Assembly (NCBI GenBank): GCA_039621445.1
Contig: CP154954.1
Location: forward strand, 7,017,425 to 7,081,424
Source: Euglena gracilis
Taxonomy: Eukaryota
Direction: 5' to 3'
DNA: 64,000 nt
Position numbers and translations under genes: made by a program. This document shows positions 12,004 through 53,212 of this stretch, piece by piece (position 1 is the first letter of the stretch; the number at the start of each line of letters is the position of its first letter). The notes beneath the pieces are model-generated. The model was not told the DNA's origin and did not search any database. It was given only the letters and a program-made list of their open reading frames with translations.

Positions 12004-15000
12004 GCACATACCATTGCCCATCACTGGATGTCTTGACGGGCAAAGCTCCCCCCACAAACGAACTCGGGGTTCCCGCGATAGGGAGGCCCGATTGACCCTG
12101 GCTGGGCCACCGCCCGCCCGCTGGCGAGGGCATCTTCCGGGCCATCAAGGAGGGCCGGCGGGTGGAGGTGAACCGCCTCGTGCAGCGGGACCCGTCGGTG
12201 CTCATCAGCTGCGGCCGAGGGGTCCTCGGCGCCGGTGACAATGGCGCAAAAACGCAAATTGCACTGTGGGTGGGACCACACAACCACTTCGTCCCTGGCC
12301 GACCCCCCCAAGTGAATGGTTTTTTTTAGATTGATTGGTTTTTGGGCCGGACTTCTCCCCCCAAACCAGAAAATTGACTGCTACCAAAGGCGCCGAAAAA
12401 ATTCCTTCTTGTGGTCAATTTCCTCTTGGGTTCCCGAGTGGCCGAGTGGTCCCCTTGACTTTCCCGGGAGTCGGTAAAAAATTGTTTGTTTGGGACCTCT
12501 TTCGGAAAGTGGTGCCGGATCTGCACACACCCACCCACCCACGCACAAACATGCGGATACACCTGCACATCTGCAAACAAATGAAATCATGCTTTCCTTA
12601 GGTTCACGTTTCCACATTATGTATTTTCTTTTCCATTATCATCATCATGTGTTTATTCAGTGTCCTTTGTTTAATTTTGCAACCATTGTTTTGCTGTTGT
12701 TGTTGGTGGTGGTGGTGGTGGTGTTGTTTCAGGAATGTGTGCACCCCAGCACCATTTCCTGTGGGAGAAGTCCCTTCGTGGGCGACGCCGTGGGGGCGAA
12801 TCCGATCCACATTGCCTTCCTCTACCGCCAGACAGAGATCGGCCAAACCCTCGTCCGACAATACCCCGAGCTGGCAGACAGGCGGACCTTTGCCTGGCGC
12901 GATACTGTTGTCTGGCACGCGCGCATGTGTGTGTGTGTGTGTGTCCATGTGTATTTCCTTTCGACCTTGGTTTATCGCCGCCCAGGTCTTTACCTTCCCA
13001 TTGAGCATTGCATTTGCATTCGTCTGGATGCGTGGGGCAGTGCTTATGCAGGATCAGCACTTTGGGGCGTTTTGTGTTTTCCAACTGTTGCATCTAACAG
13101 CGACCCTGTCTGACTCTGTTCCCACTGGCACTCTCGGTGGGAAGACTGAAGTGTGCTGCTCAATTCAAGAGAATGTGCATATCTGTGATTGCGCAGATGT
13201 ACCATCCCTCCTGTTCCTGAAAGGTTTCCCTACTCCCGACGTCGGTGTACGGGGAGGGGGAGTACAGCGGGGAGAACATCCTGCACATCGCCATCATCCA
13301 CCAGGACGTGGAGCTGGTGCGCTGGCTGCTGAACCGGGATCAGGATTTGTTTGCCGGATGAAAGTGGGTGCAGGCGGTGGGATTAGAGCCAAGCATTCCC
13401 CAGGTCTGGTTTTGTTGAAAACTCCTCTTGTCTTCTCCCTCTGTACTCCACAATCCCCTGGGTTTGTGCAATTGGGGGAGGTCAAAGTGTACCAACTTTT
13501 TGCACAGTTGCTACCTCCTGAGCATGTATGCATATTTGGAAGGCCCTGGACCTTCTGCAGCAATGGCACGGCGAAATTTCTTTGGCCCAAATTTCACAGT
13601 GGAATGCAAGGTACGTTGGAACTTTTATCGCTTTCAAAGTTAGCCATGAAGTGTACAGTTCTTGCATTCACACCCGTCGGCACAAAAAAATATTCTGAGT
13701 GGGACCCAGAGCTGCTCAACGCGGAGACCACTGGCTCGTTCTTTGCCCCCAGCGGGGACGTGTATTTTGGAGGCCCAGGGGTTGCCTCACAACCCAATCT
13801 TGGGGCTCCAAGCTACAAAATGGTGTCGGAGCCAGCCACTGCTCCTCCTAGTTACAAAACTCAATATTCTGGAATGGAGAGTTTTTTGGGGAGAAAATGT
13901 CTTGTAGGAAATATGTACACCTGAATAATCAGCACTGCAGTTTCAAGCGAAGCTTGGGAAAGGGTCTAGTGATGTTGCATTTGCTAGACGAAGAAGAGCA
14001 GGAGGAGGATGTTGACGTGAGGAATTTGTTTTGGAACGTTTTCTTGAGTGGTGCAGAGTGCACAAAGTCACAGGAATTGGTTCTTAATTTGCTGTTGTTG
14101 TTTTTGTTGCTATTGTTGTTGTCGTTGTTGGTGTTGCTGATGTTGTTGAAGGTATTTTTGCAGTATTTGAAAATATTGGTGACAGTCTTTTTGCGGGCGA
14201 CTGTGGGATACGATGATAGGAAATTCACCCCCAAATGCCAAATGCCAAATGTGTCTCCTTTCAGATTGAGACGGGCGTCCCGTTGGCACGGGACAGCTGT
14301 CGTCTCAGGTGGGCCATTTTGGCCCAATTTGTCGCAGGAAACTGAATGCCACCTGGATGCTCGTGGTGTATCCACTGCAACCGTCTGAGTTGGTCCCTGG
14401 TGGAGCTACAGCCATGCACATATGGGGGAGCCAATTGTACCCTTCCCATAGAATTGTACCAGTGTAGGGCAGTGTGGGCTGTGGAACGGTACCAAACCTA
14501 CACAGGAGAGAGAAACCTGTCAATGACAGTTTTGAGCCTCAAACGCGACGGGTTTGGCCGGTTGGCGGGCCCTGCCGACGGTACCCGCTGCTGTTCGCGG
14601 TGTCCAGCAACCAGATCGACATCCTGCAGTACATCCTCGCCACCCGCAACGCGGAGCGCTGCCGCATGCGCGGCCACTTCAAGAACCAGCCCAGGGCGGT
14701 GCACGGCGACTGTTTCGAGTAGGAAGGCCACAAGCAGAAAGCTGGCAACCGAGGTGTGGTCACGCTTCCTTTTAGCATGGTCGCTGGAGATTTGAACAAT
14801 TTATATTGTGGCTTCGGAAGCTTGGGCATTCATAACCCCCACGCTGTCCCAATTTACGCCGAGATTTCTCCTTGCAACAGAACAACAACAGAACACCAGT
14901 ACAAGAAGAGCACCTCACCATCTCCGTCCAAGTGGAGAGCATACTCTGTGGGGCGTTTGTGGTTTCCCATAAATGAACCTAGTTCAGCCGACTGAATGGC

Positions 15001-18000
15001 TGAATGACAACAAATACTGGTTGCGTCGCCGGCCGGCCGCCGCCCTGGCCGAGATCACGACCACCGATCGCTTCGGGAACTGCGCGCTCCACATGGCGGT
15101 CATCCATGGGCTGGAACGCTCTGTGCCTCCCCGAACGGATTGCCACGGGAAGTTGTCCACTGAGGAATTGGAGAGGCCTAAATAGATTGTCGACCCAGAA
15201 AAAACGAATTTCAAACTCATATTTTCAGATATGAAAATATGTCCCAATAGTATGAAGGAGCATATGTCAGGGATCAATGAGTGATTTTGGCCAATTTTCC
15301 CTCCAACTCCGTTGGTCCACCGGGGGAAGTGTGTATTTTTGTATTTTTCGGCCAAAGTTTGCTGAAACCTTAAAACTTGGCCCAACCTGAATACCGAATC
15401 CAGGCCTAAATTTAGGCCTGAATGCGTGACCGTAACCCGATCCCTATCATTAACCCTGCATCCAGCGTCTGAAAACCCAACTGAAAAAGTGGTGTGGTTT
15501 CCAGGACCCCCGAAATTGGGGTACTGATGTGTTACTAAAACAGGGACTGGACCCCTCTTCATACTACTGGGACGTGGGCCCAGTAGCAGGCTACCAGCTT
15601 TGTAGTTGCATACAAAAAAATTTGGCTCAAAAAGGCCAAAAGTTTTAGGCCTAAAACTCGGCATAATTTTGGGAGGCCTAGCTCAGGCCTAAAAACTAAA
15701 TCCAACTCCGAGGCCTAACCATATCCCTAGCCCTGTCTCAATCATTTACGCCAATTACCACCCTCGGGGACCACCGCAAAAGGGAGGGGTCAGGCGAACC
15801 CTTGGTCGTCCGAGGCAAAACTACGATAAGGGCCTTTAAGTTGAACAAGCCGAAGATCCTGGGGGCAATTGCAAATCCTTCATCCTGATAAGTGTCCGCA
15901 TCCGGTCGCCGGAGCGGGATGAAACGAATACCTTGAGTTTCTCGGTGCCTTTCTTTTGAAGAGCCGAAAGCTTTTCAGAATGCGGATCAGTCTGAAACAA
16001 GGAAGCTGGTGAACTGTGGGAGGGGCGATGCCGAAAGTGAACAGGATCGTCACTGGCAGGCGGCGAATGGCACAACACCGTATCCTGCGTCTTTGTTGGG
16101 AGTGATTCGGCAAAGAGCGCTTCAGCGGTCGACCTGCCCGATATGTACGACCAACTGCCGTCTTTATTGAATGCCTCTTTCCCTTGTGTTGCACTTGGTG
16201 CGAATTGCATGTTCCTGAATCCAAAAAGAAAGTGGGGGAGATGAAGCCGGAAACGATTGCAGTCTGCAAAAATATGGTGTTCGGCTCTGCGAGGTTGCAT
16301 TCTTTTCAGTGTTTTTGATGGTAAGTGATTGTTGGCATCCAAAAAAGTTGAAAAAGTTGACGTTGGCCAATTTGTGTGACTGAGCAACAGATTATGGTGG
16401 AAGAAAAGCCTTGCATGCAGGCAGACAGACACGGAATTCATACGGATTTTGGTGTTTGTATCGCCATTTTTTTCAACTCACATCTGCTGCCTGCCTGTTA
16501 TCTGGCTGCGTTTGCGCTGTTTGCCTGTGCATGCGTTCATATGTGCACATTGATGTACGCACATTCATACTCACATGTGCATAATCATATATGTGCATGC
16601 GCATGTGAATGCGATTCCGTGTGTGTTCGCGTGTTTTTTGTTCGGTTTGTGGTCTGGTGCTCGGAGCGTCGCACGCAGGCACCCACAGCGCGTGACAGCG
16701 GCTGCCCGCGATTTCGTGGTGGAGGAGATGCGCCGCCACGGGCTGACCCACACCGACGTGCGGCACCGCCTCAATGTGGAGCGGCTCACCCCGCTGGCCC
16801 TCGCCGCCGCTATGGGCCAGGAGCGCATGTTCCGCCCAGCCGGCCTGTCTGCCCCCCCCCCTGTGCCCCGCAAGAACTAATTTGCCGACAGGTTTTATTT
16901 ATATCTGCTTTCAGCTTTCGAACTGCTGCTGGCTGTTACAATTGTTACAATATTAAACAGTATGATTTAATGACAGCCTCTATGGGTAGGGTTGCAACTG
17001 TCGCTCCTAAATGGTCTTAGGGTTTGGGTGGGCCAAAGTCAGGGAGTCAGGCCGAAATCGTGCCTAAATTCTGGCCTAAATTTTGCCTATTTTTTTCAGC
17101 CTGAATTTAGGCCAAACGGCCCAAATGCTCACCCTGACCCTATTCCCAAACGCCAACCCCATCCCTATCTTACCCAAACCTTTGCCTTATATAAAAAGTG
17201 GACTTTCCCTATTGCACATTTGTCATGGGCACCTTCGGTGGGCAGCACGAAATCGCAGGTCGTTAGAGGCTGCCGATTTGGTAATATACAAAAAAGAAAA
17301 AAACGTAAAATAAAATTTGTAAAACAAAACGGTGTGCCAAAATTTTTTTCCCCTCGAGTTGTATGGGTGGGTACCAGGGATTTTTTTAGTCGTGGACCCC
17401 CGGGGGGGGGAGGGGGGGTAGGCAGGGTTCGATATAAGGAGGGCGTACATGGTTTAGGTGGGCGGGTGCCCCCCCCCCCCCCCCCCCCTCCTGGCCCGCA
17501 GGGGGGGGGGGTCCGGACCACCCCCCCCCCCCACCTGCAAGGGGGTTCCGGACCGACCCTGGGGGGGTACCCGGGACCCCCCCCAAAAAGGGTCAATTTT
17601 TTCCTCCAGCGCTTCGCGCCGAATTTTTTTTGCATTTTTGGCCAATTTTTGCCCAAAAAGTGCCCAAAATGGCACTTTTGGTCGTTTTGGGGGGTCAAAA
17701 ATTTTCACCCTGACCGCGCCACTGTTTAGGTGGGGGGGGTCCCCCCCCCCCCCCCCCCCCCCCTCCTGGCCTGCAGGGGGGTCCGGACCACCCCCCCCCC
17801 CCCTCTCCTTATATCGAACCCTGGGGGTAGGGTGGGTGGGTCCGACCGAGCCCCCCCCCCCCCCCCCAGGGGGGGGTCCCCCGGAGGGGGGTGGGATATA
17901 CTTTTCGGCCGAGAATTTTTTGAAAAAGCGCTATTTTAGCACTTCGCGATTTTTTGTGGGTCCCCCCGGGACCCCCCCTCCCCCTCCCCGGTTTCCTGGT

Positions 18001-21000
18001 GGGTACTCAACCCCAAGCCCCAAAGCCTTTGTCAGCCCATGGGATGGTGGTGGTAGTGTTAGCGTGGTCCTGCTCCACATGGCAGCTCTGCCACAGGACT
18101 TGGTGCAAATGTGACGCTGGTTATGTGATTCAATTGGTGACCCTTCCTGTTTGCCATTCAAACCTCAGCACAGGCAAACGGGCCGGGGGGTGACAGGAAA
18201 ATGGACTACCCCACTCGCCAATTCTTTGAATCCACAGAATTCTCAAAGTGGACAAATCTTCTCAAAGTGGAACCCCAAGCCGCGTTGGGTTGGGCAATTC
18301 ATTAAATCTGATTAACATCAAACAATAGTTGTCGAGAACGGACCCCTCAACCCGTCAATGAATAGTTATCCAGCGACGACTGTCGGCAAGTGTCAAGTAT
18401 TTTCTGGGTCGGGTCCGAACCAGATTTGAGTTCGTATGTCTGCACCGTTGCCTCTGGACAGCGGCTGCTTCGCACCACATTTTGGCCAAGAACTCCGTCA
18501 TTGCCTGGGATTATGGCCCTGTGCAGGCCGTGCTGTGTGGCCTCTTGAAAACTGCACACAAAGAGAACCACCCACCATTCGTTTGTGTGGGTGATTGCGT
18601 GCATTCTTTAACCCATGACACCCCCGGAGGGGGTGTTGTGGGTGGTTGGGTAGGTGGGCGAGATGTCAAAAATTGTTTTGGTGGGTTGGCAACCCAGAGG
18701 GAATTACCTGGGCAACCCTGAAAAAGTACCCCATCGGAGGTTGAATAGCTCCCCCCCCCCATCCAAACACCGTGCCTTGAGACCATACCGTTGCTTAAGG
18801 TGTGTCTGACACCACTCCCAATCTTCAAGGAAGGTGGTTTTCAATGGCTTGTTGGCAAAAAGGGCCAAATATTTTGGCATTTGCCCTGCGGCATTCACAA
18901 GCGAGTGAGGAGTAAGAAAAAGTAAGAAACGTTGGACAAAGTGCATAATTTCTTTGCGAACTCACGCTCCGAGTAAATTCGAATTTTTTCAGAGCCGGCG
19001 CCACCACTCCATCCCCAAACTAATTCGGATACTGCGTGACCGCTGTGGCGCATGCGCTGGCACCAACCGCCCTCACACCACCAGGCAGAAGGTTTCTTCG
19101 GCGGTACATGCTTGTGGTCCGAGTTATCCGAAAGACAGTGTCAGTCAGCCTGTGTGCCAGCTCCCCCCCCCCCAGGAATCGGCCAAACAGTCAGGGTGGT
19201 GGGTGGGGGGGGGGGAGGGTCGACCCCCACCTCCTCCTGTATTTCCAGGAGCACCGATTTTCGATCCCAAATATTTTTTCCAGGCCTTCGGCCCCGGGAG
19301 GAAATCTGTGAAGAATGCTGTGGTGGGTGGGGGGATCGACCCCCCCCCCACCGGTGTGCCCCACCCCCTCCGGCGACCCCCACACCGCCGCCTGGCGCCG
19401 TGACGTGCAAGCTGTTCCCGCTCGGCGGGCTGGAGCAGCCGTTCATCGACCCGGACACGGGCCGGTTCGTGAAGACCTCCATCGAGTGCATGTGCGCCGG
19501 CGCCCAGAGCCCCGCCCAGGCCGACAGCAAATGGCGCCATGCATCCATCGCCATGAAGTTTCGATGCCCCCCCCCCCCCCTATGTCGAAACCCCAACCTA
19601 GTTGGAGGACACCTTTTTGGAGGTTTTGTCCAACTTCTGCATTTTTGCTGCCCAAAAGCTTCCATTTTGTAAACTTTTTTTTTGGCAAAAATTTGTTCAA
19701 AAAAAAGAAAAAAACAGCAGTGCCAAAAGGATAATTTTAACTTTGGGGGGTTGGGTCTCGGGCACCCCACCAGTCTGTGGAATTTGTTTTGGGCCTCTTG
19801 TCAAACGACCGACCTCCAGGTTGGAGGGCATCTTTTTGGTCAACCATCCATCCAATGCAGGGAGCGCTACCCCTGGGCTCCAAGCGGGCCTTCCAATCTC
19901 CCTGACGTAACCAGGAATAAACTTCGGCCCCAGCCAGTTCTTTCTTTTCAAACCAGGCAGATACGGTCTGCCAGCATCACGGAGTGCCTCAAATTTGTCG
20001 ACAACAAAATTCCCAGCAAAGTGGAACAGGCACCGTGGTAGCGGCTGCGCCACAGACTCCTGTCGCACTTCTGAAAATAGCACCCAGACAAGTATCAGAG
20101 ACACACAACGCTCTTGAACTTGCGAAGCCTCATTTGGCAAGTGTCAGTGCTTTTTGTTGGGTTTCCAGCGTTTCAACTCCATAAGTGCAGGTCATGAAAT
20201 GCTGGTTTCCTGAATGGTCTAGTGGGCGTTTTTCAGGGAGTATTTCTCTTTTTTTTCGCCTTCCAACCGGCTTGGAGATGCCTACCCTCCCCCCTATGTC
20301 CAACGACCCCCCTATGTCCAATGACCACCCCCCCGGTCAGAGGACACCTTTTCGGAGGTTTGACCAAATTTTTGGTCCCGGCGCACCGGGACGAAAAATT
20401 TTGCCCAAAAATTGGCCAAAAATTTGGCCAAAATGCCATTCTTGGCACTTTTTGGACAAAAATTTGTCAAAATTGCCCAAAATTTTCGGCGCGAAGCGCC
20501 GGAATGGAAAATTTGGGCATTTTTGGGTGGGTAGGGACCCGGGTACCCACCAACTTTCTTTTGACCCCATGTCCAACGACCACCCCCCCCCCCGGTCAGA
20601 GGACACCTTTTTGGTCACTACCCTATGTCCAACGACCACCCCCCCCCCCCGGTCAGAGGACAGAGGTTACCGGTCATTGGACATAGGGGGGGGCGGGTAC
20701 TTAAAGTTCACTTGGCACGCGATTCCTAACTCCAGCCTCCAACCTACGCCGGACCCGGCACCACGCGCCGCGGCTGGACCTCGTCGTCAGCGCGGAGGTG
20801 CGGCAGGTGCTGGACAAGAAGTGGGACGCGTTCGGGCAGCGCATGTTCTACCGGAAGCTGGCGGTGGCCCTCGGCACTGTGCTGGCCTGGACCGCCGCCA
20901 GCATCATTCCCGCCCAGGGGGTGGCTAGAGCTACTCTCCCCCCCATGCCCAATGAACGCCCATGCCCAATGAACAGGGGGTGTTCGGACTGTCTAGCTTA

Positions 21001-23186
21001 GTCTAGATTGTCACCTTAGTTAGTGTTCATTGGGCTTGGGGCGGGGGAAGGAAGGAAAGGGGGTACCATGCTAAAACCCTTCTGAAGAGGTACCCCCCAA
21101 GGAACTCAGCAGAACTTGTCCAACCCTCTCTTTTCGCAACCTCTTCCCATGTCTTGGAACCTGTCCCCTACTCTTCCCCCCCCGTTTTTTTTCGACTTTT
21201 TGGCCCGAAATGGCCGAAAATGGCGTCGGAAGCCTGCCGCGCTATTTCGGGCCGTAAATCAACCATATATCGGGCTTGGTGGGGAGTTACGGGGAAATCA
21301 AAATACCGTTAGATAGGGCGTTCCAAGGGCTTCAATTTAGGTCTGACATTTCCTTTGATTTGCTTCATTTCCGATACATTTTTAAAACATCGATTTTGCT
21401 ACATTGTGGATATATTTTGAAAAAAATCGATTGATTGACCAAAAAAAAAAACGGCCGAAAAGCACCCCAAAATGGCCGGTTTGGGCCACAAAAGTGCTAG
21501 GCGTGTCGGCGGCCAAAACGGCGAACAGGGGGTGATAGAGGGTCTCTAGGGGTACATTTCGTCAGAACCACATTTCTGGAAATATTGTAAGTTTTCTCGA
21601 GATATCTTCGAAAATCGATTTTTTGACCGAAAATCTCACCCCGGCGAAATGGCAGAGTCGAAACTGGGGGGGGTGGCGAATCCGAGTTTGGACCCCTTCG
21701 TGGCTGAATAACTCGGGCCTGGCGGGGAGTTGGGGGTCAAACGGAGGTGATTTGGAAACTCAGTGCATTTCCCCCCCATGAAGCTAATCCATGTATTGGA
21801 CCTGCTGACCTGTCGGACCAACGGTGCGACCAAAACAATGATTTTTAATGAAAAAATAAACATTTTCCATTTTGGAAAACAATTGCTCTTCGTCAGCTGG
21901 AAGCCGAAAGCCCTGTCCCCCAACCACTACAGCCTTGCCGACCAGAACCGCGTGGACTTCCCAGTGGCCAACGCCGTCATCCAGGCGCTGGAGCTGTTCG
22001 TCTTCCTCTCGGTGAGCTGGCGGGGCCTGTGCGTGGTGTACAGCAACTGCCTGCCCACCCATGTCAGTATCGTTCAGGGCTTCGTCGTTGGGCTTTTGGA
22101 TTCCTCAAGCCTCCAAAAGGCTGAGGACTGCCTTTTTTTTTGAGGTTTCTTCATTTTGTGCTTGGATCGGGGGGAACCAAACTATTGACATTCTGTATTT
22201 TTCCATGATTATTTTTTTGAGGAACCAGGAGATTTGCACGCCAGGTGGCACATGAACCGGGTCTCGCGAGCATATATGTACACATACACAAGTTAACGTG
22301 CACGTATGCAGGTACATATAATATATACACATATGTATGTATATGTGTATGTATATATATACATATTTACATATATACACACACATATGTACATATATAT
22401 ACACATATACCCACAAGCACACGTGTGCCATGGCTGCAATAAGGCCACACCAACCAAGGATTATTTTCGGTAAATGTTGGCATGTACAAATCAATCAGTG
22501 ACGAAGTGACACTTTCTTTTTCCCCCCTGTCGAACTTGTTGAGCACACATGAAGAAAGCTTCAACTACAAATGGGCTGTTTAGCTGAGAGCCTGCCTTGA
22601 GGGTGCTGCGGTTGGGATGTGCCAGTTTTTGGGGCTGGCTGCAGCAGCGACCCTGTGAGTTCTTGTTCAACATGCAGCACTGTAGTTTGGGTATTTCAAA
22701 ACGTGTCCGGATGCCCCCAGGGGCAGGTGGCACACCCAGTAATGTTCATTTAAGTAATTTTAATTTTATTCCCCCCGCCCGCTTGTTCAAGGCTGTGCCA
22801 TGATCTCGTATCAACAGCACAGTTTTTTTGGTATTTGAGAAAGCCTTCTCTCTCTACTTTGATCATTTGGCTGGATCTGTGATCCAAAACAGAACCGAAA
22901 TTACATACAAGGGCCATCTACCACTTGCACACTGGGTCGTTCACCCCCCCCCCCCGCCGTGTCCCAGAACATTGGCATCTTGGACAGGGGGGGAACGGGA
23001 AATAAAGAAGTAACTCAAGCTGGGGCCAGCCCGGCCGGAAACAAACTGCCTGGGGTGCGCAGCCGTGCTCGGGAGACCCACGGCGCGGCGGCGGTGGAGG
23101 CGGCGCTGGGCAACGTGTTCTGCGGCTTGTACCTGTCCTCCCTCGCCTTCCGCCCAGGGAACCGCAGAGGGCCGACCCCCACTTGG

Positions 23187-23222
<36 letters not shown>

Positions 23223-26200
23223 ATGTTTGAGCCCATGTCCATACGCCTTTCTGTCTGCTCTCCTGTTTTGTTTGTCTGCAGAAATTCAGGACACCTGCTA
23301 TGACACGCAGCGTTGCCCTGCCCGCTGTCTTGCGGAGCTGCCAACCCTCGTTGACATCACCGCTGCCTTTGCCGCCCTCACTGGCTGGCTCCACGTGTTC
23401 TTCTTCTTGCACAGGGTGGTTTTTTTCACACATAAATCATTGAAGACTGATTAAGGTAATGACGTAGCAAGGAGACAGCAACTCAGTCACACCACAGGGC
23501 AGGGTCCAGAACATACACTCACTTAGTCAATGCCCCCCATGGGATTGGATGATTGGTTTTTTTAGAGTTACTGCATGGTTTTTGGCCAGAGGGTGGATGC
23601 ACTTCTGGGTCGGAACACACATGCCTCAATGCAGGTACGTGCTCGAGTGCTTGACTAACTGTCCTGGAAGCACTTGGCTTCCGTTCCACAGGTCCCTTCG
23701 TCATTATGATCAAGGAAATGCTGGAGTATGAGCTGGCCTGGGAGATATTGTAGCACACCGTTTATGTGGGGCCTGGGCGAGAGGGTGTTCCGACCTCCCC
23801 CACCTGCCGTTTTGTCGCACCCGGGTGGTGTTCTCACAGTTTTGGATATGACAAACAGCATCAACCAATTTGCCCCACTCAAAACCCCTAGGAATGCCAA
23901 CCATGGGAGACCAGCCTAAACTAAACAAAAAATTTGCAAGTGGATTGGTTTTAAGCATGCCCTCAAAATCGAATTTGGCCATTTCTTTGGAAATTTTTTG
24001 GACAATTGGGCTTTTAAACGGCAAACTGTTGAGTATTTGGAGGTTTTTTAATTTTGAGGTGGGGTCATTTTCAGGGAATTTTCACGAAATGCCTCGGTTA
24101 TGAAGGGGGGGGCGGACCCCTGGTTTGTTGGATCATCTATACTGGATCGTGGGGCCCCCTCAGCTATCCCCCCCGAGCTATTCCTGGGTTTTATTTGCAT
24201 TAAGAAACACGATCAACGACGTCCAACGTTTGGACAATCATTTGCATTTATTCTGAAGCAGCATGGACACACAGTTGTTTGAAAGAAAAAATACATGCAC
24301 ACAAATCTGGGTCTGGGGATGTCCACGGCCCTCAGGCTTCAGGCAGATTGGTCCAACACTGCTATCCCCCAGCCACCGTTTGGACCACTCATTGTTGCCA
24401 CCAGTCTCAACCCTCTGATTCTCACCTCCCTGTGGGGGGGGGTTCAACCCCACTCAATCCTCTGGGCCTTTCCCTCTCCCAAGCCAGAGGCAGACATCCG
24501 GCGCTTCCTGTCGGTGTACTTTGCGGTGCTGCTTGGCTTCGCGATGTCACTGTATATGCTGACCGAGAACCTCCAGTGACAATGCCCGGCAAGTTCCGAC
24601 AAATTGAAACCATTCCCAACAATGCCCGCCCGCTCCTGGCAATTCCGGGCAAATCCGGACCATCCAACGATTCGCAACAGCAGCACCGAATATCGCTTGC
24701 CCGGAGGGGCTCGGGGGCGACATACAGCCAGGACGAGCACGGGCCCGACGCGTTCCTGAAGCACCTCTGCCCAGGGCCCAGGGCCCAGGGCCTATGGGGC
24801 TGGCTGTGGCCATTGCTTCACAGGGCACCACTTGAGCCTCTTTTCTGACCCAAAAAAAACCCACCGCAGGGCACAAAGGAGCGTTTGGGCCAGTAAAGGA
24901 TCAGCAGCCCCATCCCTCACCAGGGAACAGTAGCACTCCAGTGTATCCCCTGCAAAGATACGCAATATATTATTCCGAAGTGAAGGAAACGCTAGATTTT
25001 TGGCATGCCACTGATGCCAACAGCTTTTTGATGCTAAACGCTCTTTGAGCGGGATAAACCTCCCTCCTCAAATAAGTCCAACCAAAAAAATGAAGCAACC
25101 CCAAAAACAAAACCCCCCCAGCCGATTTTCACCGAAGATATTCACAGGAAAACCCAAGAATGGCCCGTAAAGCTGAGCCAATTTTCGTTGATGGCGAAGG
25201 ATCCAGCTTTATGGACCTATTTTGAGCCCTACCACAGATATTTATCCCCCCCCCCCTGTGATAAGAATCCCCCTTCTGACGGGACACATTATGTTTTTGG
25301 GTGTTATTTCTCCGCTTTCCAATGGCACAACAGCATCGTGCGATTGTTGGTATGCCCTCAAGACCCCTTCCTCCAATCAAACCCCAAAAAACATAAGACC
25401 TTGGGCTACATTTTGGTCCCGTTGCTGAAAATCCCAAAAGGGATCTTCAAATTCAACTCTATCTTCAACTTCAGGGAGCCACTTTCGGTTATTGCTGAGG
25501 GCGTTGGTTAAAAATAACATTTTTTCTGCAATTTCCGCAACTTCCCACAATTTCTGCAATTTGCTGCAATTTTCTTGCAATTTCTGCAGTTTTCCCCACA
25601 ATTTTCCCAATTTTCCTGCAAATTTTTTCTTTTCTGCAATTTTTCCGAATGAACCTGAAATACAAGGTAAAATGAGTTCTGGATGGTTACCGCCACACAC
25701 ATATGCATGTGTGTGCATCGAAACCCGGGTGTCCCTGGCTCACTTTGACCCCTCTCCCCTCCCCCCTCCGCCCTGCTGGCGGCAGTTTGTGCTGCTTGGG
25801 CTGGTCGGTGACTTCCCGTTCGAGGAGTACAGCGAGCGCTTCAGTGGGGCCCGCATGCTACTGCTGGACCTGCTGGTCATGTCGCCCGGGCTGGGGCCGC
25901 AGGTGTCCCCCCCCCCCCCTGTCGGAGGACAACTTTTCAGGGTGTGATGAGTCTGGGGAAGCTTTTTTTTTGGACCAAAAAATCCTCCCTTCGAAAGTCA
26001 GAGATTCCGGTTCGTTGGACACACATATATATATTGTAAAAGGTTGGATCCCCCAAAAGCCTCAGTGGGGTGGATGTTGGGCGATGCTGGGGTATGGGGG
26101 CTGTAGGGGGCGTCAGGGGGCGTCGGGGGGTGTCGGGGTGTTTCAGGGGGTGTGGGAGTTGAAGGGGGTGGGGGGTGGGGGGTGGGGGGGTGAGGGGATG

Positions 26201-28854
26201 GGGGGTGGGGTAATTTTTCCCGAAATTTTTTCTTTTGTATTTTCGGAAGTGCTGGGATCACTCTGGTTACTTGTAGTCAAAAAAAACGCCCCCCCCCCAG
26301 TTTCATTACAGGACGACTAATTTCAGGACGACTTTTCAGGGGGGAAACATCCATCCTAAAATGAAATTCAAACAACGGGGAAGGGGGAGGCAGGGTTTTT
26401 TGGGGGGGGATTCTGGGATGGCGCATCCCCACCCCAGGCACAGGCACATTCTTGCCATCTCCCTTGGAAAAAAATTGCACCCCCATGCACCAGCCAGTGG
26501 GGAGAGGTGTGGTGTGGGGCGAAATTGCTACCTACACCCCCCTCCCCCCGGGAAACTGTCATACCCGAGAAACTGTCAGGTCCCAGGAAACTGCCAGGGT
26601 CCTTGGTTCCGGCCGACCTGTCAGTATGGGTGGTTCGTCAGGTTCCCTGGTACGGGCCGGCCTGTCAGGTGACAGTTTCCCGGGGGGGGGGGGTAGTTGG
26701 GGCCCCTGTTTTTTTTGCAAAATTATTGGAAAGTTCAAGTTTTTGGGTAAAATGGTGGTATATTTTTTTGCGTTGTGGTTGGTTACATTCGATTTGATCA
26801 AATTCTTGCAAAATGGTCAGAAACAAACGTCTTGTGGTGCATTGGTGTTTTTTTTTGTAAATTTCATTTTCAAAATAAATCTGAAGGACTGACAACATTA
26901 CACAACCCCAGCCTTTTGAACCCCCCCCCCCAAACTTTTCAGAGTCCCACCCGGGAACCTTTCAGAGTCCCCAGCCAACCTATCAGTATTGGAAGCTTTC
27001 AGGGTTTGGTTGCTGTTACCAGCCAAACTGTCAGGTGATAGGTGGGGGGGGGGGAGCTATATGAAATTTGATAACCCCCGAGAGTTAGAGGGTTAGAGGG
27101 TGTAGGAAAGGTACACTGGAAAAAATTACGCGAAAAAACCATGGTATCCCATACTTTTTGTCTCCTGTATTTTTGTCTGGACTGTATCCCGTTATTTTTA
27201 GGGAAGAGGTGCAGACCACCTGACCCATTCCCTCATGGTCAGTGGGATGGGTGATTGGTCAGGTGGGCAATGGTGGTGTGCCTTGTCGGCCCCCGGCCTG
27301 CCGCCGTACATCATCCTGGTGGTCATCCTGCTGCTCAACCTGCTCATCGCCATGATGGGCAACACGTACGCTTGCGTGCAGGAGCAGGCCGAGAAGCGCT
27401 GGTACCTGGAGCGGGCCAACCTCATGGCCAGGGCGACTGGGAGGTTGAAACACCCCCTGGGAGTAGGGCAACAGCCCAAATCCCTGAATTGATCTTGACC
27501 CTCCACAGTCTTTCCTGTACGTCTCATCTGTGCCAGCCAGATCAAAGTACCACACGTTTCTCCTGTCTTCCTTGTTTCAGTGCGACACTTGTTTCATCCT
27601 CACCCGGTCCGTTTCCCCCCTTTTCACTGCAGTGCCCACGTGTCATCATTTATCTATTTCCTTCCCCATGATTGCCCTCTGTTTAAAGCACCTTTTGATT
27701 TAAATTCTGCGTGACATGACATGGATAAATTTTAGTCAATGGTCACATCCAAGTTTGCAAAGTTTTTCTCCTGGCAGGAATCTGTTTTTTTAATCCCCAC
27801 CTGCTGTCTACGCCTACCTTCAGGGCCAGCCGTCATTCTTTCCTGTTCTCTCGGCTTGCGCAACTGTTTGACGCATAAAAAGGTCGTGGTTGATTTTCCC
27901 CTGCTGTTGCCCACCCACGTCAGGTCAGCAGCGGTGGCAACGGTGGCCGGCAGAGTGACGATTGGATCCCGCCCCCCTGCAGCGGGCAGCGTACGAGTCC
28001 GAGCACAGCATGGATGAGATGCAGGATATCCGGAAGGAATATGCCACCCCATTCAACCCAGGCTGCTGTGCATCTCCATTGTGGCAATGTGTGAAACAGG
28101 TGCTATACCATTGATTCCCCTCGAAAATACATATACTGTCACCATATTATTCCACATTTTTTTTTCTCTCACAGAGCAAGTAGTGCACGGAAAGCAGCGT
28201 CACCGCCCAAATTCGGTGTTTCAGACCACCCACCCAGGTTTTTAGGTATTTTTGATTGGTAAGTTCCCACGGGGTTGATATAAAAACATCACCACACAGC
28301 TACACGCACGCACGCACGCACACACACACACAAACGGGAAGCGGGTCTGGTGGGGAACGTGGTTACTTGTCACATGTGACCAGTGTGATGCATGCAACGT
28401 GACACATCACCTGCTGTAAGATCTTTCCGGTCCAAGAAAACAGACCAAGTTAGGAACCGAGGATGACAATACCTGACCTGAGGGATACCCACTCAGGGGG
28501 CGTGGAGTGGGGGGTGAGATATTCGACACGGGCCGTGGGATTCAGGGCAGGGTTTGATATAAGGAGGGCGTACATGGTTTAGGTGGGGGTGTCCCCCCCA
28601 CCCCCCCCCTCCTGGCCCGCAGGGGGTGTCCGGACCCCCCCCCACCTGTCCTTATATCGAACCCTGATTCAGGGTTGCCTTCCGCCTGCCCGGCCCGCCC
28701 AGCAGCGTGCCACTGCCAGGCGGACTCCGTGACGAAGCACCTCGAGTTCTGCCTCACCACCACGTCGTGCTCCGAGTCGTGGAAGTTCCGCCGGCCGTCC
28801 GCGCAGCGCCGCCTCAGCGCCGTGCCGCAGTTCTCGATGCTGACCACCCCGTGA
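11108..28854 (+). CDS. TRPV-like (OSM-9/Nanchung/TRPV5-6-like) ankyrin-repeat cation channel, paralog 1, about 682 aa, 24 exons
   Basis: Exons: 11108-11172, 11466-11514, 12126-12212, 12784-12875, 13238-13337, 13703-13772, 14580-14688, 15053-15107, 16131-16148, 16710-16833, 18474-18520, 19400-19513, 19976-20031, 20770-20911, 21922-22071, 23073-23151, 23327-23408, 23672-23729, 24493-24570, 24729-24768, 25781-25883, 27306-27425, 27985-28055, 28715-28854 (2049 nt, ATG to TGA, all phases consistent). Motifs: [24 protein letters not shown]...[65 protein letters not shown], pore [24 protein letters not shown]-box-like WYLERA. A few junctions are ambiguous by 1 nt. Confidence 0.9.
13338..13702 (+). 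other. Non-conventional intron present only in paralog 1
   Basis: gat-CAGgatttgtttgccg ... cggcacaaaaaaatattCTG-agtgg. Paralog 2 is uninterrupted here (exon 50862-51031). The 8-mers outside CAG/CTG are accgggat and agtgggac (5/8 identical). Confidence 0.85.
17375..17998. mobile_element. hAT-like MITE (family E-like) inside TRPV paralog 1 intron 10
   Basis: CAG...CTG ends, perfect TSD gtgggtac, degenerate TIR; hosts a nested family D copy. Confidence 0.75.
17423..17823. mobile_element. hAT-like MITE, family D, nested
   Basis: TIR cagggttcgatataagga...tccttatatcgaaccctg; perfect TSD ggggtagg. Confidence 0.93.
20285..20697. mobile_element. TA-flanked MITE, family C
   Basis: Ends C(n)tatgtccaa...ttggacataG(n) with TA on both sides; internal ggtcagaggaca repeats; homologous copies at 35172, 39246 and 54025. 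Confidence 0.85.
21250..21640 (-). repeat. Dispersed repeat related to the interior of family A copy 1
   Basis: 21271-21345 is approximately the reverse complement of 6823-6895. Confidence 0.6.
23189..23221. repeat. (GT)n microsatellite
   Basis: Perfect dinucleotide run inside an intron. Confidence 0.9.
24571..24728 (+). other. Intron present only in paralog 1 (boundaries uncertain by 1-2 nt)
   Basis: Interrupts [13 protein letters not shown], while paralog 2 reads LTVSPEQCGLEAF without a break. Starts ctc-CAG; 3' pairing is weak. Confidence 0.65.
26535..26693. mobile_element. TA-flanked MITE, family G
   Basis: Ends C(n)gggaaactgtca...tgacagtttcccG(n); related copies at 39675-39976, about 29830-30020 and about 48110-48515. 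Confidence 0.75.
28548..28666. mobile_element. hAT-like MITE, family D, 119-bp deletion derivative
   Basis: TIR cagggtttgatataagga...tccttatatcgaaccctg; perfect TSD attcaggg; lies in the last intron of paralog 1. Confidence 0.92.
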
Positions 28855-35171: not shown

Positions 35172-35514
35172 CCTCCCCCCCCCCTATGTCCAATGACCCC
35201 CCCCCCCGGTCAGAGGACACCTTTTCGGAGGTTTGACCAAATTTTTGGTCCCGGCGAGAAGCGACGGGACGAAAAATTTTGCCCAAGAATTAGCCAAAAA
35301 TTTGGCCAAAAGGCCATTTTTGACACTTTCTGGACAAAAATTTGTCCAAATTGCCCAAAATTTTCGGCGCGAAGCGCCGGAAGGGAAAGGGGCATTTTTG
35401 GGTGGGTGGGGACCCGGGTACCCACCAACTTTCTTTTGACCCCATGTCCAACGACCACCCCCCCCCCCCCGGTCAGAGGACAGAGGTTACCGGTCATTGG
35501 ACATAGGGGGGGGG
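35172..35514. mobile_element. TA-flanked MITE, family C
   Basis: Homologous to 20285-20697; TA flanks. Confidence 0.85.
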
Positions 35515-39200: not shown

Positions 39201-42200
39201 GTGCGGATGGGACGGCTGTGGTTGTTATTGCCAAACGCTGGTCTATTCCCCCCCCCCCCCCTATGTCCAACGACCCCCCTATGTCCAACGACCACCCCCC
39301 CGGTCAGAGGACACCTTTTTGGAGGTTTGGCGAAAATTTTGGTCCCGGCGCGAAGCGCCGGGCCGAAAATTTTTGTGCCCCAAATGGGTCAAAAATTGGC
39401 CAAAATGCCATTTTTGGCACTTTTTGGACAAAAATTTGTCAAAATTGCCCAGAATTTTTGGCGCAAAGCGCTGGAAGGGAAAATTTGACCTTATTTGGGG
39501 GGTGGGGTCCCGATTACCCGCCAACATTTTTTTTGACCCCTTGTCCAACGACCACCCCCCCCGGTCAGAGGACACCTTTTTGGTCACTACCCTATGTCCA
39601 ACGACCACCCCCCCGGTCGGAGGACAGAGGTTACTGGTCGTTGGACATAGGGGGGAGGGTAAGCACTCTCCCTACCCCCCCCCCCGGGAAACTGTCATGC
39701 CCGAGAACCTGTCAGGCTCCCGACCGGGAAACTGTCAGGGTCCCCGGTACCGGCCAACCTGTCAGTATAGGAAGTTGTCAGGATCCCCGGTGCCAGCCAA
39801 CCTGTCAGGGTCATTTTTCATTGACTTTCCCTTGAAATGCCCTACCCGGGAAACTGTCAGGGTCCCGCCCGGGAAACTGTCAGGGTCCCCAGTACCGGCC
39901 AACCTGTCAGTATAGGAAGTTGTCAGGGTCCCCGGTACTGGCCAACCTGTCAGGTGACAGTTTCCCGGGGGGGGGGTAGGTATCCCCCCCACAGGAAACT
40001 TCCTCTACCCTCTCTACCACTGCCAACTTGTACAGTTTTTTTTTTGCATTTTTTTGCTCGGATATTTTTTCGGCTTGAAAAAATTCCACATGTCATTATT
40101 ATGTCATTTTTGACTTTTTGGTCAACAAATTCCATAATTTTGGAATCATGTTGTTCCAAAAATCTAGTCAAAATACATCAAAGTACAGTTGTATGACGGA
40201 AACGTGAAGGAGCACTTGAAGGAGTTTCCATGCATCGAGCATTTTTGTGATTTTTTTTCTGTCACATTTTCCGAGGGTCTGTGCTGTGCTGTCCCCCTTC
40301 CCTGTTAAGAAGTGGAACACCGACCGCTGGCATTTTTTCCCCTCCCAAAATAAACGCAACGTTTGCACCCGAAAGACAATGATCAGTTCGGCCTCTCAGC
40401 TTGTGAATTCATCCCAAGTTGAGTTCCCAGTGCGGCTGGAAATAACAAACGACCGAAGTTGGCAAAGGAATGTGTGCACTGCAGGAGAATTTCCACCCAA
40501 TCGGATTTCGATTGTGGATGTTTAGATCAAAATCCAACACTAATCGCAATTCCGAAAACGGAATTCTCCCCCAATGATACACTTGGTTGTAGCCCGCAAT
40601 GCGCGGAGATACACCGAGTACTCCAACAACGCGGATTAGCCTCGTTGTTTGGAAACGCGAAAAGCGTCATTCCTAATCACAATCGCAATTACACTTGGTA
40701 CGGATTTGATGCGGAATGGGGAAAACCCCAACCTGTCCAAACTCCCTTGGGATTAACCCTTGAGGTAGTGGAAGACAGCCCGCATGTTTGTGGATCCATT
40801 CATTGTGTTTCTTCACTCCAACCCGGAAATCGGGTGCATGAATACGCGAAACGCGTATGGAATGCTTTCAATTTTGGTCAATGTCGCATTTTGGAACGAT
40901 GGTTTTCCAAAATCGCGTCATTGGCTGATTCCTTTGATTTGGCATTGGAAATCGATGTCTTTTCATCGAAAGCGCATGCCCGTTTGCCACGTCATTGGTC
41001 ACACCACTCCAACGCATTTGATAAATTTTGGGGTGATACGGTGTTATGGGCACAACTGTGGCATGATTATTTTTTCCACGTTTTTTTATCCGTCGGTTTT
41101 TGACGCCAAGTTGGATTTGGAATGCCTTTCTGGAATTATGTGCTGACATTTTTATCTCTTGAGGCATTGCAGCTTGGGCAATTTCCATAGACCCTGTCCC
41201 CACGATCAGCATCCTGATCCACAGCCCAGCAACGCGGGCAGGCCAGACGATACCCATCCTGTTGCATATTGGGTGCGGGGGGCGGGCTGTCCAAAACCTC
41301 ATGGGTGTAAGTGGCGAGTGTGGGATGGGGGGTCCGACGACCATATTCCCATTTATCCAGGTCGCTTTTTCAAATCAGATTTTTTCCTTCAGATTGCCAT
41401 TTTGTGTGTGGGGGGGGGCTTCTCCTCATTCAGCCCTGGGTATCAAATGGTTCAGGGCCTCAGAAGGTGTGGATGTGGTGAATACCCGAGAAATTAGAGA
41501 TGATTGGATGTTGGAATGGACGATGCTGCCAGTTTGGAATGGGTCAACTACCTCCATGTTTTCAGTAGTGGTTTCCAATCACATTCCATCGCCCCGGCCT
41601 GAAATCAACAGTGCAGAACATCCCCCTGCCAGACACCCCGCTCTCCCGGCCAGTCTGTGACTGGAGAGTCTCCCCTCCACTTGGGTTTCATGGCCTGTCA
41701 CTTCTTCTGCACACCATGTGTCGCCCCCATATAGTGAGGTGAGCACCACCTGGCATGTGGTTCACATCATACCATTGCCTGTGTGTGTCCGACCCCCCAA
41801 CTAATTTGTTTTTCTGGCTCTGTCCCAACCGCAAAACAATTTTTTGTTGTTTTGCTCCACCTTCATCGATTCATTTAACACCTTTGGGGTATGCCGCGTG
41901 TCAGATGTTGGCCTTACCGAAGGCCGAGCCAGGAATTTTTTTCAAGGGGTTTCGGCCGATTTTGGCTGGATTTTGGGTGGGTGGGTGTTTGTTGGGTGTG
42001 GTTGACCCGGGGGGGTGGGGTATTTCAAAAACTTGGCTGGGTTGGTATGGGCCCGGGAAAAGTGCCCCCCAGGGGGTTCCTTTTTTTTGGCAGGGGTCGC
42101 AAAGTGAATCCATGCTTTGGACTACGCACCCCCATTTTCCTTGTTTCGCCTGGCAGGACGGCCTTCCTTCATGATGGGGGTTGGTGGGAGGGATTTTGGA

Positions 42201-47585: not shown

Positions 47586-50500
47586 ATGCTGGAGATGTCC
47601 CCCCGCCAGGGCTCGCTCCGCGCCCAGAGCGACCAGCAGCGGATGCACCAGGCCCAGGCCGCTGCCCGGCGGTGGGCTCTTGCCTGAGGCTGTTGGCCCA
47701 GGGCCAGGCTTCTTTTGAAGTCAGAAGACCCCGGGGGGGGGGGAGGGTGGGTGGGTCCGGGGCCGGACAGCCAGGAGGGGGTCCCGGGCCGGAAGCCTGG
47801 GAATGGGTCTGTCGCGCAGCGCGGAAAATTTTTCGGAAATGCCCTCAGACGGCTCGATGTTTTGCGGTCCCCCCCGGGGGGGTCCTGCGCCGGGCAGGGT
47901 GGTTGGGGGATCCCCCCTCCCCCCCGGGGTCTTAAAAGGATGCCTGCCCAGGGGGACCAGGGGAGATGGGTTCCAGCCAGGGGTTTTCTTAAGCTGGAGG
48001 GGACACTGCACCCAGCTAGCACCCCTTTTCAAGCCAGTCCCAGCTGAGCTGCACTCCTCCAGCTGGCACGAAATTCTTTTCCCTGACGAACTCGGCATTT
48101 TTTCCTCCCCCCCTCCCCCGGGAAACTGTCCTCTAATCCCCCGCACCCGCTAATCTGCCCTCATAGAAATGTCTCCTCGCATTGCACCCGCTAACCCGTC
48201 CTCATAAAAATGTCTCCCAGCCTTGTACCTGCTGACCTGTCAACTAGCAAATTTTTGCAAATGTTCACACGTTTTAGTTGAAAAGGCAACCGTTTTCCAA
48301 GTTGAAAAATTTGCCAACCTTGGTTTCAAGATTGTGATTACAAATTTGTGGGGAAAACCCCACATTTTGGATTTTTGTGTAAAAAATTGTCATTTTTTTG
48401 CGGGACCCGCCCGGGAAACTGTCTCCTGTCTCCGTACCCACTGACCTGTCTTTATGGGACCTGCCTCCTACCTCTATGCCTGCTGACTTGTCTAGAGACA
48501 GTTTCCCAGGAGGGGTAGGTACTCGGCCCCCCCAGGCAATTGACGCCCCCGGGCAATTGACGCCCCCGGGCAATTGTCACTCCTGGCTGTGCCGGCCAAT
48601 TTGTCACCCTGGGAAATTGTCACCCCCTTCCGTGCTGCCCAGTCTGTCACCCCCCCCCCCGTTTGCAGTATTGCACTGTGAACTTTCTTTTCGCCGACAT
48701 GACTCGATTGATCTTCTATTTCGCTACAACGTGCTGAGAACTTTCGCATACCAAACGCTCTGCACATTATCACGACCATAGCTGCATTTTTCCTGCGTTC
48801 ACTTGTGTTTAAGATGGTGTTCTTGGTCATTTGGTTTAAATGTGGCTTACATGGGTGGGCAATTGACGCCCCCGGGCAATTGACGCCCCCGGGCAATTGT
48901 CACCCCCCTCTGTGCCGGCCAATTTGTCACCCTGGGAAATTGTCACACCCCTCCGTGCTGCCCAATTTGTCACGCAACAATTGCCCAAGGGGGGGGGGCG
49001 AGTATGATGAGAAACGATTTGGAATTGGCGAGGCTTGTGCCCCTCTCCATGCCCAATGGAAAAAATGCCCAATGAACAGAACCCAAATTTTGCCATTTAC
49101 ACAGTTACCATATACCTGTCATAACCCCCCCCCCCAAATATAACCCCCCCCCCCCGGTTTTATGTTTGGGCGGAAATTTGACGACCCCGAGGGGGGTTTA
49201 TATTTGGGGGGGGTTTACATTCGGTCGGAAAAATCAGCTTCCCGGCAGGCTCCAGTAGTCACTTTTTCGGTCCAAAATCACAAATACGCCCACCCTTGGG
49301 GGTCCAAAAACTTCATTTTTCGGGCGAAGGATCAATTTTCACATGTTTTTGGTAAAAATTGTTCCCAAATCTGCAAAAAATCACAATTTCGGGAGAGATT
49401 TTGTCGAAAAAATTTCCTTCCGGCGCTTTGCGCCGGAGGGGGGGGGGTTTACATTCGGGCGGGATTTCAGGGTCCTCAGGGGGGGGGTTATATTTGGGGG
49501 GGTTTTGTATTTGGGGGGGGGGTTTGTATTTGGGGGGGGTTTACAAGATTAGCGAACTCCCATGTCCAATGATCGTCCCCGTCCACACCATCTGGGTTGT
49601 CACCTTCAGGGCCTCACCCCACCTTACCCCACCACAGACCCACCGGGGGGTCATGCATTGGCGGGCTTTCACAAAACACAGTGGGTGGATGGTTTTTGGG
49701 ATTTGGGCCCGGAGAAGTGCTCGCCCCCTCCGGGAGACCTGTGATCAGAATTGCAATGCGGAGAAACCTTCCCCACAGGCCTCTCCTGCGGCAGCCGTCT
49801 GCCTGGGAGGGCATCTTCTGGGCGGTCAAGGAGGGGCTGCGGGACCGGGTGCGCCAGTTGGTGGCCGAGGACCCCGCCGTGCTGACCCAGCCCAGCCAGG
49901 CACTGCTGGCTGGTGGGGAGGGGTCCGGTGCCTGTTTGGGTCGCTTTTCTTTGGAACCTTGTGGCTGGCCGAGTGTTTTATGCATTGTGTGGCGTATTTT
50001 TTTTGAAGAATATTGGCGGGAGAAAGGCAGGTGCAGACATCTGTGTCTCCCGTCTGGTGGTGTTGACTGGCGGTAGACTGTCGGTTTGGCCGGCGCTATA
50101 TCTGTGGATGCCAGGAATATCGCCGTTTTTAAGACTGCGGATTTCATAATGTTTCTGTATTGGCTTCCATGTCAAAATAGTGCAAATGGGAACTCCTCTT
50201 GCGGAATTTAGGGCAACTGGGCTGGGACGTTCTTGCCAGAACCGCATGCAGGCTGACGCAGTGGGGGCCAGCCCGATCCACGTCGCGTTCCTGTACTGGC
50301 AGACAGAGATTGGCAAAGCCCTCGTGGAAGAGTTTCCGAAGCTGGCACTCAGGAAGATCCGCACAGTGCAACGAGAAGAACTAAATACGCCCCTTGCCAT
50401 TTCAAGCATTGCCTTCCCATATCCAACCAAGGTGGCTCCATTATTTAAAGAGAATTGTTTGTTTTTGGGTGAAGCCGCAGGATTATGAGACAACTGCATG

Positions 50501-53181: not shown

Positions 53182-53212
<31 letters not shown>

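Follow-up and report, generated by a model that had tools for sequence, protein, structure and literature searches.

Two introns that occupy the same position in tandem paralogs of a putative TRPV-like ankyrin channel gene of Euglena gracilis carry the pairing motif at their ends in exchanged form, CTG...CAG in one copy and CAG...CTG in the other. The introns lie at 15108-16130 (1023 nt) in the first paralog (P1) and at 52012-52317 (306 nt) in the second (P2). Coordinates refer to a window of 64 000 nt (assembly GCA_039621445.1, contig CP154954.1, positions 7,017,425 to 7,081,424), which is the whole stretch of DNA that was analysed; both genes, with their introns, are on its forward (+) strand. 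Judged from the sequence, the two are probably homologous nonconventional euglenid introns inherited by both paralogs, and we infer both their common descent and their exact junctions. A preliminary description of this DNA had presented the exchange as a compensatory swap, and had concluded that pairing and spacing, not the CAG sequence, define the splice sites. The observation is real and clearly above chance, and its interpretation, half right, is partly supported: the complements are exact and the spacing is fixed, but published mutagenesis and the strong bias towards CAG/CTG found here show the sequence to be read as well as the pairing.

Junctions and terminal stems of the two introns

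The P1 intron opens with ggg (15108-15110) followed by the 5' motif CTG at +4..+6 (15111-15113), and closes with the 3' motif CAG at -8..-6 (16123-16125) and a 5-nt spacer, cggtc (16126-16130), before the first exon base, G, at 16131. The corresponding elements of the P2 intron are agc (52012-52014), CAG at +4..+6 (52015-52017), CTG at -8..-6 (52310-52312), cggcc (52313-52317) and exon G at 52318. All of these letters are as quoted in the preliminary description. Excision of the P1 intron, which has GG...TC ends, joins the upstream exon 15053-15107 (...HMAVIH) in frame to DLPDMY, and excision of the P2 intron, with AG...CC ends, joins ...HMAVIQ to DLPDMY. Both introns therefore split one codon boundary, ...HMAVI(H/Q)|DLPDMY, and share position and phase. 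In each gene the downstream micro-exon DLPDMY (16131-16148 in P1, 52318-52335 in P2) is flanked by two nonconventional introns and measures 18 nt, the smallest exon size.

Neither intron has GT/GC-AG borders, and in both copies the spacers are 3 nt (5') and 5 nt (3') and the reading frame is kept. The exchange itself is confined to the middle pair of the motif: at +5/-7, P1 has U:A and P2 has A:U, and the two outer pairs, C:G at +4/-6 and G:C at +6/-8, are common to both. The spacers at -5..-1 are identical at four of five positions, and G opens the downstream exon in both. At the borders P1 reads t|g...c|g and P2 a|a...c|g; the weak rules of Milanowski et al. (2016) for these bases are a pyrimidine at the end of the upstream exon, a purine at the intron start and a pyrimidine at the intron end, to which P1 conforms throughout and P2 in all but the first, and they hold in 29, 37 and 28, respectively, of the 37 introns that could be placed in the two genes. 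The P1 intron is slidable by 1 nt (g), so that placement at 15109-16131 yields an identical mRNA, whereas the placement 52012-52317 is unique for its inferred mRNA. Both introns satisfy every term of the published code for nonconventional introns, 5'-N3CDG-/-CH'GN5-6|R, where D is A, G or T (Nomura et al., PNAS 2025; PMC12501133), and both have pairing beyond the motif.

The terminal stem of the P1 intron is formed by the 17-nt arms 15111-15127 and 16109-16125, which are those quoted in the preliminary description. Fourteen of its first 16 positions are paired, one of them as G-U (WWWuW.WWWWWW.WWW, W denoting a Watson-Crick pair, u the wobble and a point a mismatch), and in the P2 stem 11 of 14 positions are paired. 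The end duplex of P1 reached -27.4 kcal/mol, compared with a mean of -12.4 for interior 25-mers, and that of P2 (25-nt ends) -25.8 kcal/mol, compared with a control mean of -13.4; in neither case were any of 300 controls as good. When the whole P1 intron was folded with 10-nt flanks and no constraint, the minimum-free-energy structure paired 15111-15113 with 16123-16125 (+4:-6, +5:-7 and +6:-8) and continued on to +20:-22.

The P1 intron holds 7 of the 20 AGGCCT sites of the window, several of them in short repeats, direct and inverted, that resemble AGGCCTAAA. The presence of a repeated or mobile element within 15108-16130 was considered and rejected, as the window contains no second copy.

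Host genes and the pairing of their other introns

The window is Euglena gracilis-like nuclear DNA; exon 20738-20917 has 96% identity to two Euglena gracilis transcript proteins in EukProt, P0001 and P0002. These were returned by protein searches as paralogs or relatives, as was a further relative from JGI, P0003. BLASTN, TBLASTX and TBLASTN of the homologue proteins against the window delimited two tandem paralogs, P1 at ~12126-28800, in which 20 of 21 inferred introns were placed, and P2, truncated by the window end, from ~47562 to at least 62810, in which 17 of 18 were placed. They have at least 16 exons in common, in identical order and with the short exons matching in series, and both align exon by exon to P0002 and P0003. 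Through these two homologues the host gene is assigned as a TRPV-like ankyrin cation channel. The domains were read on the homologues rather than on P1 and P2: Pfam detected ankyrin repeats (Ank_2, E 9e-19) and a weak Ion_trans match of 20.8 bits, under the cut-off of 25, and comparison of P0003 with structures returned TRPV6 chains (E 1e-39) and TRPV1 across residues 87-611.

After removal of the inferred introns, P1 gives 1710 nt in 20 exons (570 codons) and P2 1503 nt in 17 exons (501 codons), with zero stop codons in either. Over 454 aligned codons the amino acid identity is 74%, with dS 0.64, dN 0.178 and dN/dS 0.28. These values show purifying selection on both paralogs and indirectly support in-frame removal of the introns. 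An apparent truncation of P1 after ...SLYMLT was ruled out, as it is explained by an extra intron present in P1 only (24561-24718) and a short exon.

Junctions were inferred from protein homology, intact frames and the dN/dS ratio. Every frame-keeping pair of donor and acceptor was enumerated for each exon junction, the junction peptides were scored against three transcript-derived homologues, and placements were chosen by whether +4..+6 pairs with a triplet that leaves a 3' spacer of 5 or 6 nt. This located 37 of 39 inferred introns; no pairing geometry was found for P1 ~28058-28716 or P2 ~49885-50254, the latter showing no end pairing at any frame-keeping placement. Five of the 37 placements are below the top peptide score (12213-12783, 16834-18473 and 19514-19975 in P1; 52012-52317 and 57406-57784 in P2). 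For four introns with a mismatched motif and for P2 56000-56091, placement relied on the 5' triplet and on analogy to the paralogous intron.

None of the 37 introns has GT/GC-AG borders, and a purine is both the first base of the intron and the first base of the downstream exon in all of them. The 5' spacer is fixed at 3 nt; on the 3' side, 29 introns have a spacer of 5 nt, seven one of 6 nt and a single intron one of 4 nt. All three motif positions are paired in 33 introns, by Watson-Crick pairs only in 32, and the strict published code is met by 27 and missed by 10. CAG/CTG accounts for 23 introns. The other paired combinations are CTG/CAG in three introns, CGA/TCG in two, GTG/CAC in two, and CGG/CCG, CGG/CTG (P1 25884-27305) and CAA/TTG in one each; the mismatched ones are CAA/CTG in two (16149-16709 and 57077-57363), CAG/CTA in one (P1 12876-13237) and CAG/GTG in one (22072-23072). 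Wherever a non-consensus 3' triplet is paired, it complements its 5' partner exactly (CTG/CAG three times, CGA/TCG and GTG/CAC twice, CGG/CCG and CAA/TTG once).

The paired variants listed in the preliminary description, CGA/TCG (12213-12783), GTG/CAC (20032-20769 and 56148-56934), CTG/CAG (23730-24492 and 59673-61132), CGG/CCG (52955-55225) and CAA/TTG (52336-52830), were all recovered at their coordinates, with two corrections of position: TTG of 52336-52830 lies at -9..-7, with a 6-nt spacer, rather than at -8..-6, and so does CTG of P1 16834-18473. The four uncompensated mismatches had gone unmentioned there; otherwise the introns and their pairing positions had been identified correctly, from sequence alone. 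The statement that the CAG sequence does not define the sites lacks support in that form, given the 23 of 37 introns that keep CAG/CTG, the purine downstream of all 37, the four unpaired cases and the published knock-ins.

The pairing depends closely on register. When the 3' partner was slid by 1-3 nt only 0-4 of the 37 introns were fully paired, against 33 unshifted. Shuffling the 3' triplets among the P1 introns gave a mean of 9.64 paired against 17 of 20 observed, a value reached in 0 of 20 000 shuffles; for P2 the mean was 11.01 against 16 of 17 observed, reached in 3 of 20 000. Behind the motif, stem positions 4-12 are paired at 6.57 of 9 on average, compared with 3.98 (sd 1.55) in 1302 decoy pairings. 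Seven introns are non-slidable, so that fixing the mRNA also fixes their placement; all seven have CAG/CTG at the expected distance. The remaining 30 are slidable by 1-4 nt, a proportion near the 84.4% of slidable nonconventional introns in E. agilis (PMC12501133).

Some database observations touch these genes. Among sequencing runs matched to sampled words of 12100-22099, none that contains them is on record as RNA; 19 guessed to be RNA contain 0.09-0.13 of the words, which does not count as evidence of splicing. P0004, a protein of 185 amino acids predicted from a Logan contig, reads through from an exon into intron-like sequence: it holds the exon-7 sequence of EG_transcript_3144, then residues identical to the translated start of the P2 intron 52955-55225. 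From the comparison of P0004 with window positions 52831-53010, a third paralog probably shares the 5' end of this intron. Related loci were also sought in metagenome contigs by two pattern scans, which gave 183 and 594 matching places, none of them encoding a relative.

Divergence of the paralogs and alternative explanations

Motifs and stems were compared across 14 homologous intron pairs, before the last shared intron of P1 was placed. Among the 42 motif cells 36 have the same pair, two are double changes that are still paired and four are paired in one copy only. Both double changes affect the middle pair and are the only motif differences located there; one is that of the focal intron (U:A against A:U) and the other is found between P1 16834-18473 and P2 52955-55225 (A:U against G:C). 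From A:U to G:C a wobble path is available, and its intermediate, CGG/CTG, is present in P1 25884-27305. No wobble intermediate exists for the A:U to U:A flip, which would therefore have gone through an unpaired state. Of the 168 cells given by 12 stem positions, 71 agree between the copies, 22 show double changes, 15 have changed on one side with the pair kept, 41 have lost the pair in one copy, and in 19 neither copy is paired.

Several observations weigh against inheritance of a single intron that is spliced in both copies at the junctions given here, and some of them favour other explanations. The minimum-energy fold of the whole P2 intron leaves its ends unpaired and, with a z of -0.48, is no better than that of shuffled sequences. 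The placements carry a degree of circularity, in that peptide-equivalent ones were chosen by the pairing itself.

The P2 junction is also challenged on the protein side. Placement 1 nt upstream, at 52011-52316, outscores 52012-52317 on peptide by 243 to 219, because it restores a His conserved in P1 and in all three guide proteins, and the swap at +4..+6/-8..-6 would then be partly an artefact of placement. That alternative would, however, open the exon with C, where a purine is found in 37 of 37 introns here and in 55 of 55 in an earlier survey (PMC4770533), and it would shift CAG to +5..+7 behind a 5' spacer of 4 nt, although knock-ins in which that spacer was altered by 1 nt failed to splice (PMC12501133). 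The upstream junction is accordingly considered improbable. The two placements predict different cDNAs, ...ATCCAAGACCTG... from 52012-52317 and ...ATCCACGACCTG... from 52011-52316.

Outside motif and spacer the two focal introns are poorly conserved, with an identity of 7/15 nt at the 5' end and of 4/12 in the 3' arm, and BLAST found no match between their interiors. This low identity and dissimilarity, the lengths of 1023 and 306 nt and the difference in intron presence at three sites between these paralogs would fit introns that do not descend from one ancestor, the intron of one copy having been exchanged for another or gained anew at this site, as would be expected if these introns come from MITE-like (miniature inverted-repeat transposable element-like) elements, so that two different elements would be compared; turnover of intron positions and a MITE origin have been reported and proposed, respectively, in the literature (PMC4770533, PMC11282704, PMC12501133). 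Such separate origins are unlikely, as the introns share an identical nucleotide position and phase and four of five bases of the 3' spacer, and a dS of 0.64 suffices to erase similarity that is not constrained. Their end identity, low as it is, falls within what the 13 remaining homologous pairs show (5/15 and 6/12 in pair a4, 7/15 and 5/12 in pair a12).

A third explanation is that at least one copy is a decaying or silent duplicate and that the motif differences reflect neutral drift rather than selection for pairing. Four of the 37 introns have one unpaired motif position, a mismatch of the kind that, as a single mutation, abolished splicing in knock-ins, and P1 12876-13237 has exactly the CTG-to-CTA change concerned (PMC12501133); in three of the four the paralog retains the paired form. 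P2 56000-56091 (92 nt), which has a perfect 9-bp terminal stem (CAGGCGGGG/CCCCGCCTG), stays in frame only with a 4-nt 3' spacer or a 2-nt 5' spacer, 1 nt below the rule. The proteins of P1 and P2 themselves were not found in the protein collection, which returned only other paralogs or relatives to a word-based search that also missed known relatives. Decay is nonetheless very improbable, given the zero stop codons across 570 and 501 codons after intron removal, the dN/dS of 0.28 and a focal motif that is perfectly complementary, with long stems, in both copies, which drift would not yield on both strands. Descent from one ancestral intron, spliced at the same point in both genes, is preferred to all three explanations.

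Some further differences between the paralogs were observed. Introns 13338-13702 (CAG/CTG) and 24561-24718 (CGA/TCG) are present in P1 only and 57406-57784 (CAG/CTG) in P2 only; all three are nonconventional, and the last has a perfect 12-bp stem. The first shared intron is apparently placed a few nt apart in the two genes, ...VLISC|DAVG in P1 (12213-12783) and ...VLTQ(P/A)|DAVG in P2 (49885-50254). A repeat of ~410 bp with 88-92% identity occurs in a P1 intron (20285-20697), in a non-homologous P2 intron (54027-54440) and twice between genes (39252-39655 and 35179-35482), and is probably a dispersed element.

The published code and the exchanged pair

Conserved complementary positions at +4,+5/-7,-6, mostly CA/TG, were described by Milanowski et al. 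(2014; PMC3935182). The complementarity was extended to +4..+6/-8..-6 by Milanowski et al. (2016, BMC Evol Biol; PMC4770533), in whose account it is pairing "rather than sequence" that is kept; CAG/CTG was present in 33 of their 55 introns, many compensatory changes were reported among homologous introns, and tubB intron 9 of E. agilis has U/A at +5/-7 instead of A/U. The downstream exon began with a purine in all 55, and a purine was also found at the intron start (PMC4770533). The code of Nomura et al. covers 61.2% of E. agilis nonconventional introns and leaves 38.8% outside. In their knock-ins splicing is lost when one base of CAG or CTG is changed, and the 5' and 3' spacers must measure 3 nt and 5 nt, 6 nt being tolerated in the latter; a purine should open the downstream exon, and pairing behind the motif is required (PMC12501133). 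Natural CGG-CCG and CGG-CTG introns splice, and among the second-position variants tested splicing was kept only by CTG-CAG (PMC12501133). The compensatory mutants proposed in the preliminary description have thus been published for the middle pair, and the outcome is divided: CTG-CAG splices, and the other complementary second-position variants tested failed, so that pairing alone is insufficient (PMC12501133).

The rule and the U:A variant at +5/-7 (2016) and the disrupt-and-restore test of the middle pair (2025) are therefore already known, and the present locus is a new instance of them. It resembles the introns of the 2016 study in U/A at +5/-7, compensatory changes, pairing at +4..+6/-8..-6 and purine borders; that study compared strains of one species at one gene, whereas here old paralogs (dS 0.64) in one genome are compared (PMC4770533). 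Set against the introns of the Nomura code, the present pair offers two configurations at one position of natural paralogs, known from sequence alone (PMC12501133). A review of the class (Mob DNA 2024; PMC11282704) states that nonconventional introns are removed after conventional ones and released as circles, and that a MITE-like origin has been proposed. Like the transposon-derived introns of MITE-like or introner type (PMC11282704), those described here have terminal inverted repeats and, at their junctions, short direct repeats, 30 of the 37 being slidable. The focal intron differs from the transposon-derived ones in having no transposase, no repeated copies in the window and no sign of recent mobility.

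The geometry also recalls a further class. Introns of the tRNA type with a bulge-helix-bulge are cleaved at fixed distances from a helix and give a circular product. The likeness is one of resemblance only, and the focal introns do not belong to that class. An outer helix of the tRNA type, which the exon flanks would form, found no support (mean -5.61 kcal/mol, compared with -5.59 for decoys; 9355 of 20 000 shuffles as low).

According to the literature on the class, the intron ends pair in a helix that begins 3 nt inside the 5' junction and stops 5-6 nt before the 3' junction. The consensus is CAG/CTG, a purine opens the downstream exon, and the excised intron is released as a circle. Under the favoured explanation, one substitution on each strand since the duplication would have turned the +5/-7 pair from A:U to U:A or the reverse, and the unpaired intermediate could have been tolerated by a redundant duplicate. 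Both states are within N3CDG/CH'GN5-6|R, so that splicing is expected at the same point in both genes.

As a discovery the exchange is minor, yet it provides a clean natural example of both configurations at one position in old paralogs under purifying selection. With RNA data, the 39 introns would form a compact test set for the strictness of the code at the outer two pairs. Triplets outside the CDG/CH'G code are present here, namely GTG/CAC, retained by both paralogs since the duplication, CGA/TCG in two unrelated P1 introns and CAA/TTG. A tentative and rather doubtful extension is that the helix that measures the splice sites is read purely as a helix, in which case the outer pairs may also flip if they are kept paired. 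Provided that these introns are efficiently spliced where predicted, the outer pairs (C:G and G:C) could flip or change while paired, the A:U to U:A flip would be one of several crossings of a splicing-dead intermediate enabled by gene duplication, and the four mismatched introns would be such intermediates caught in passing.

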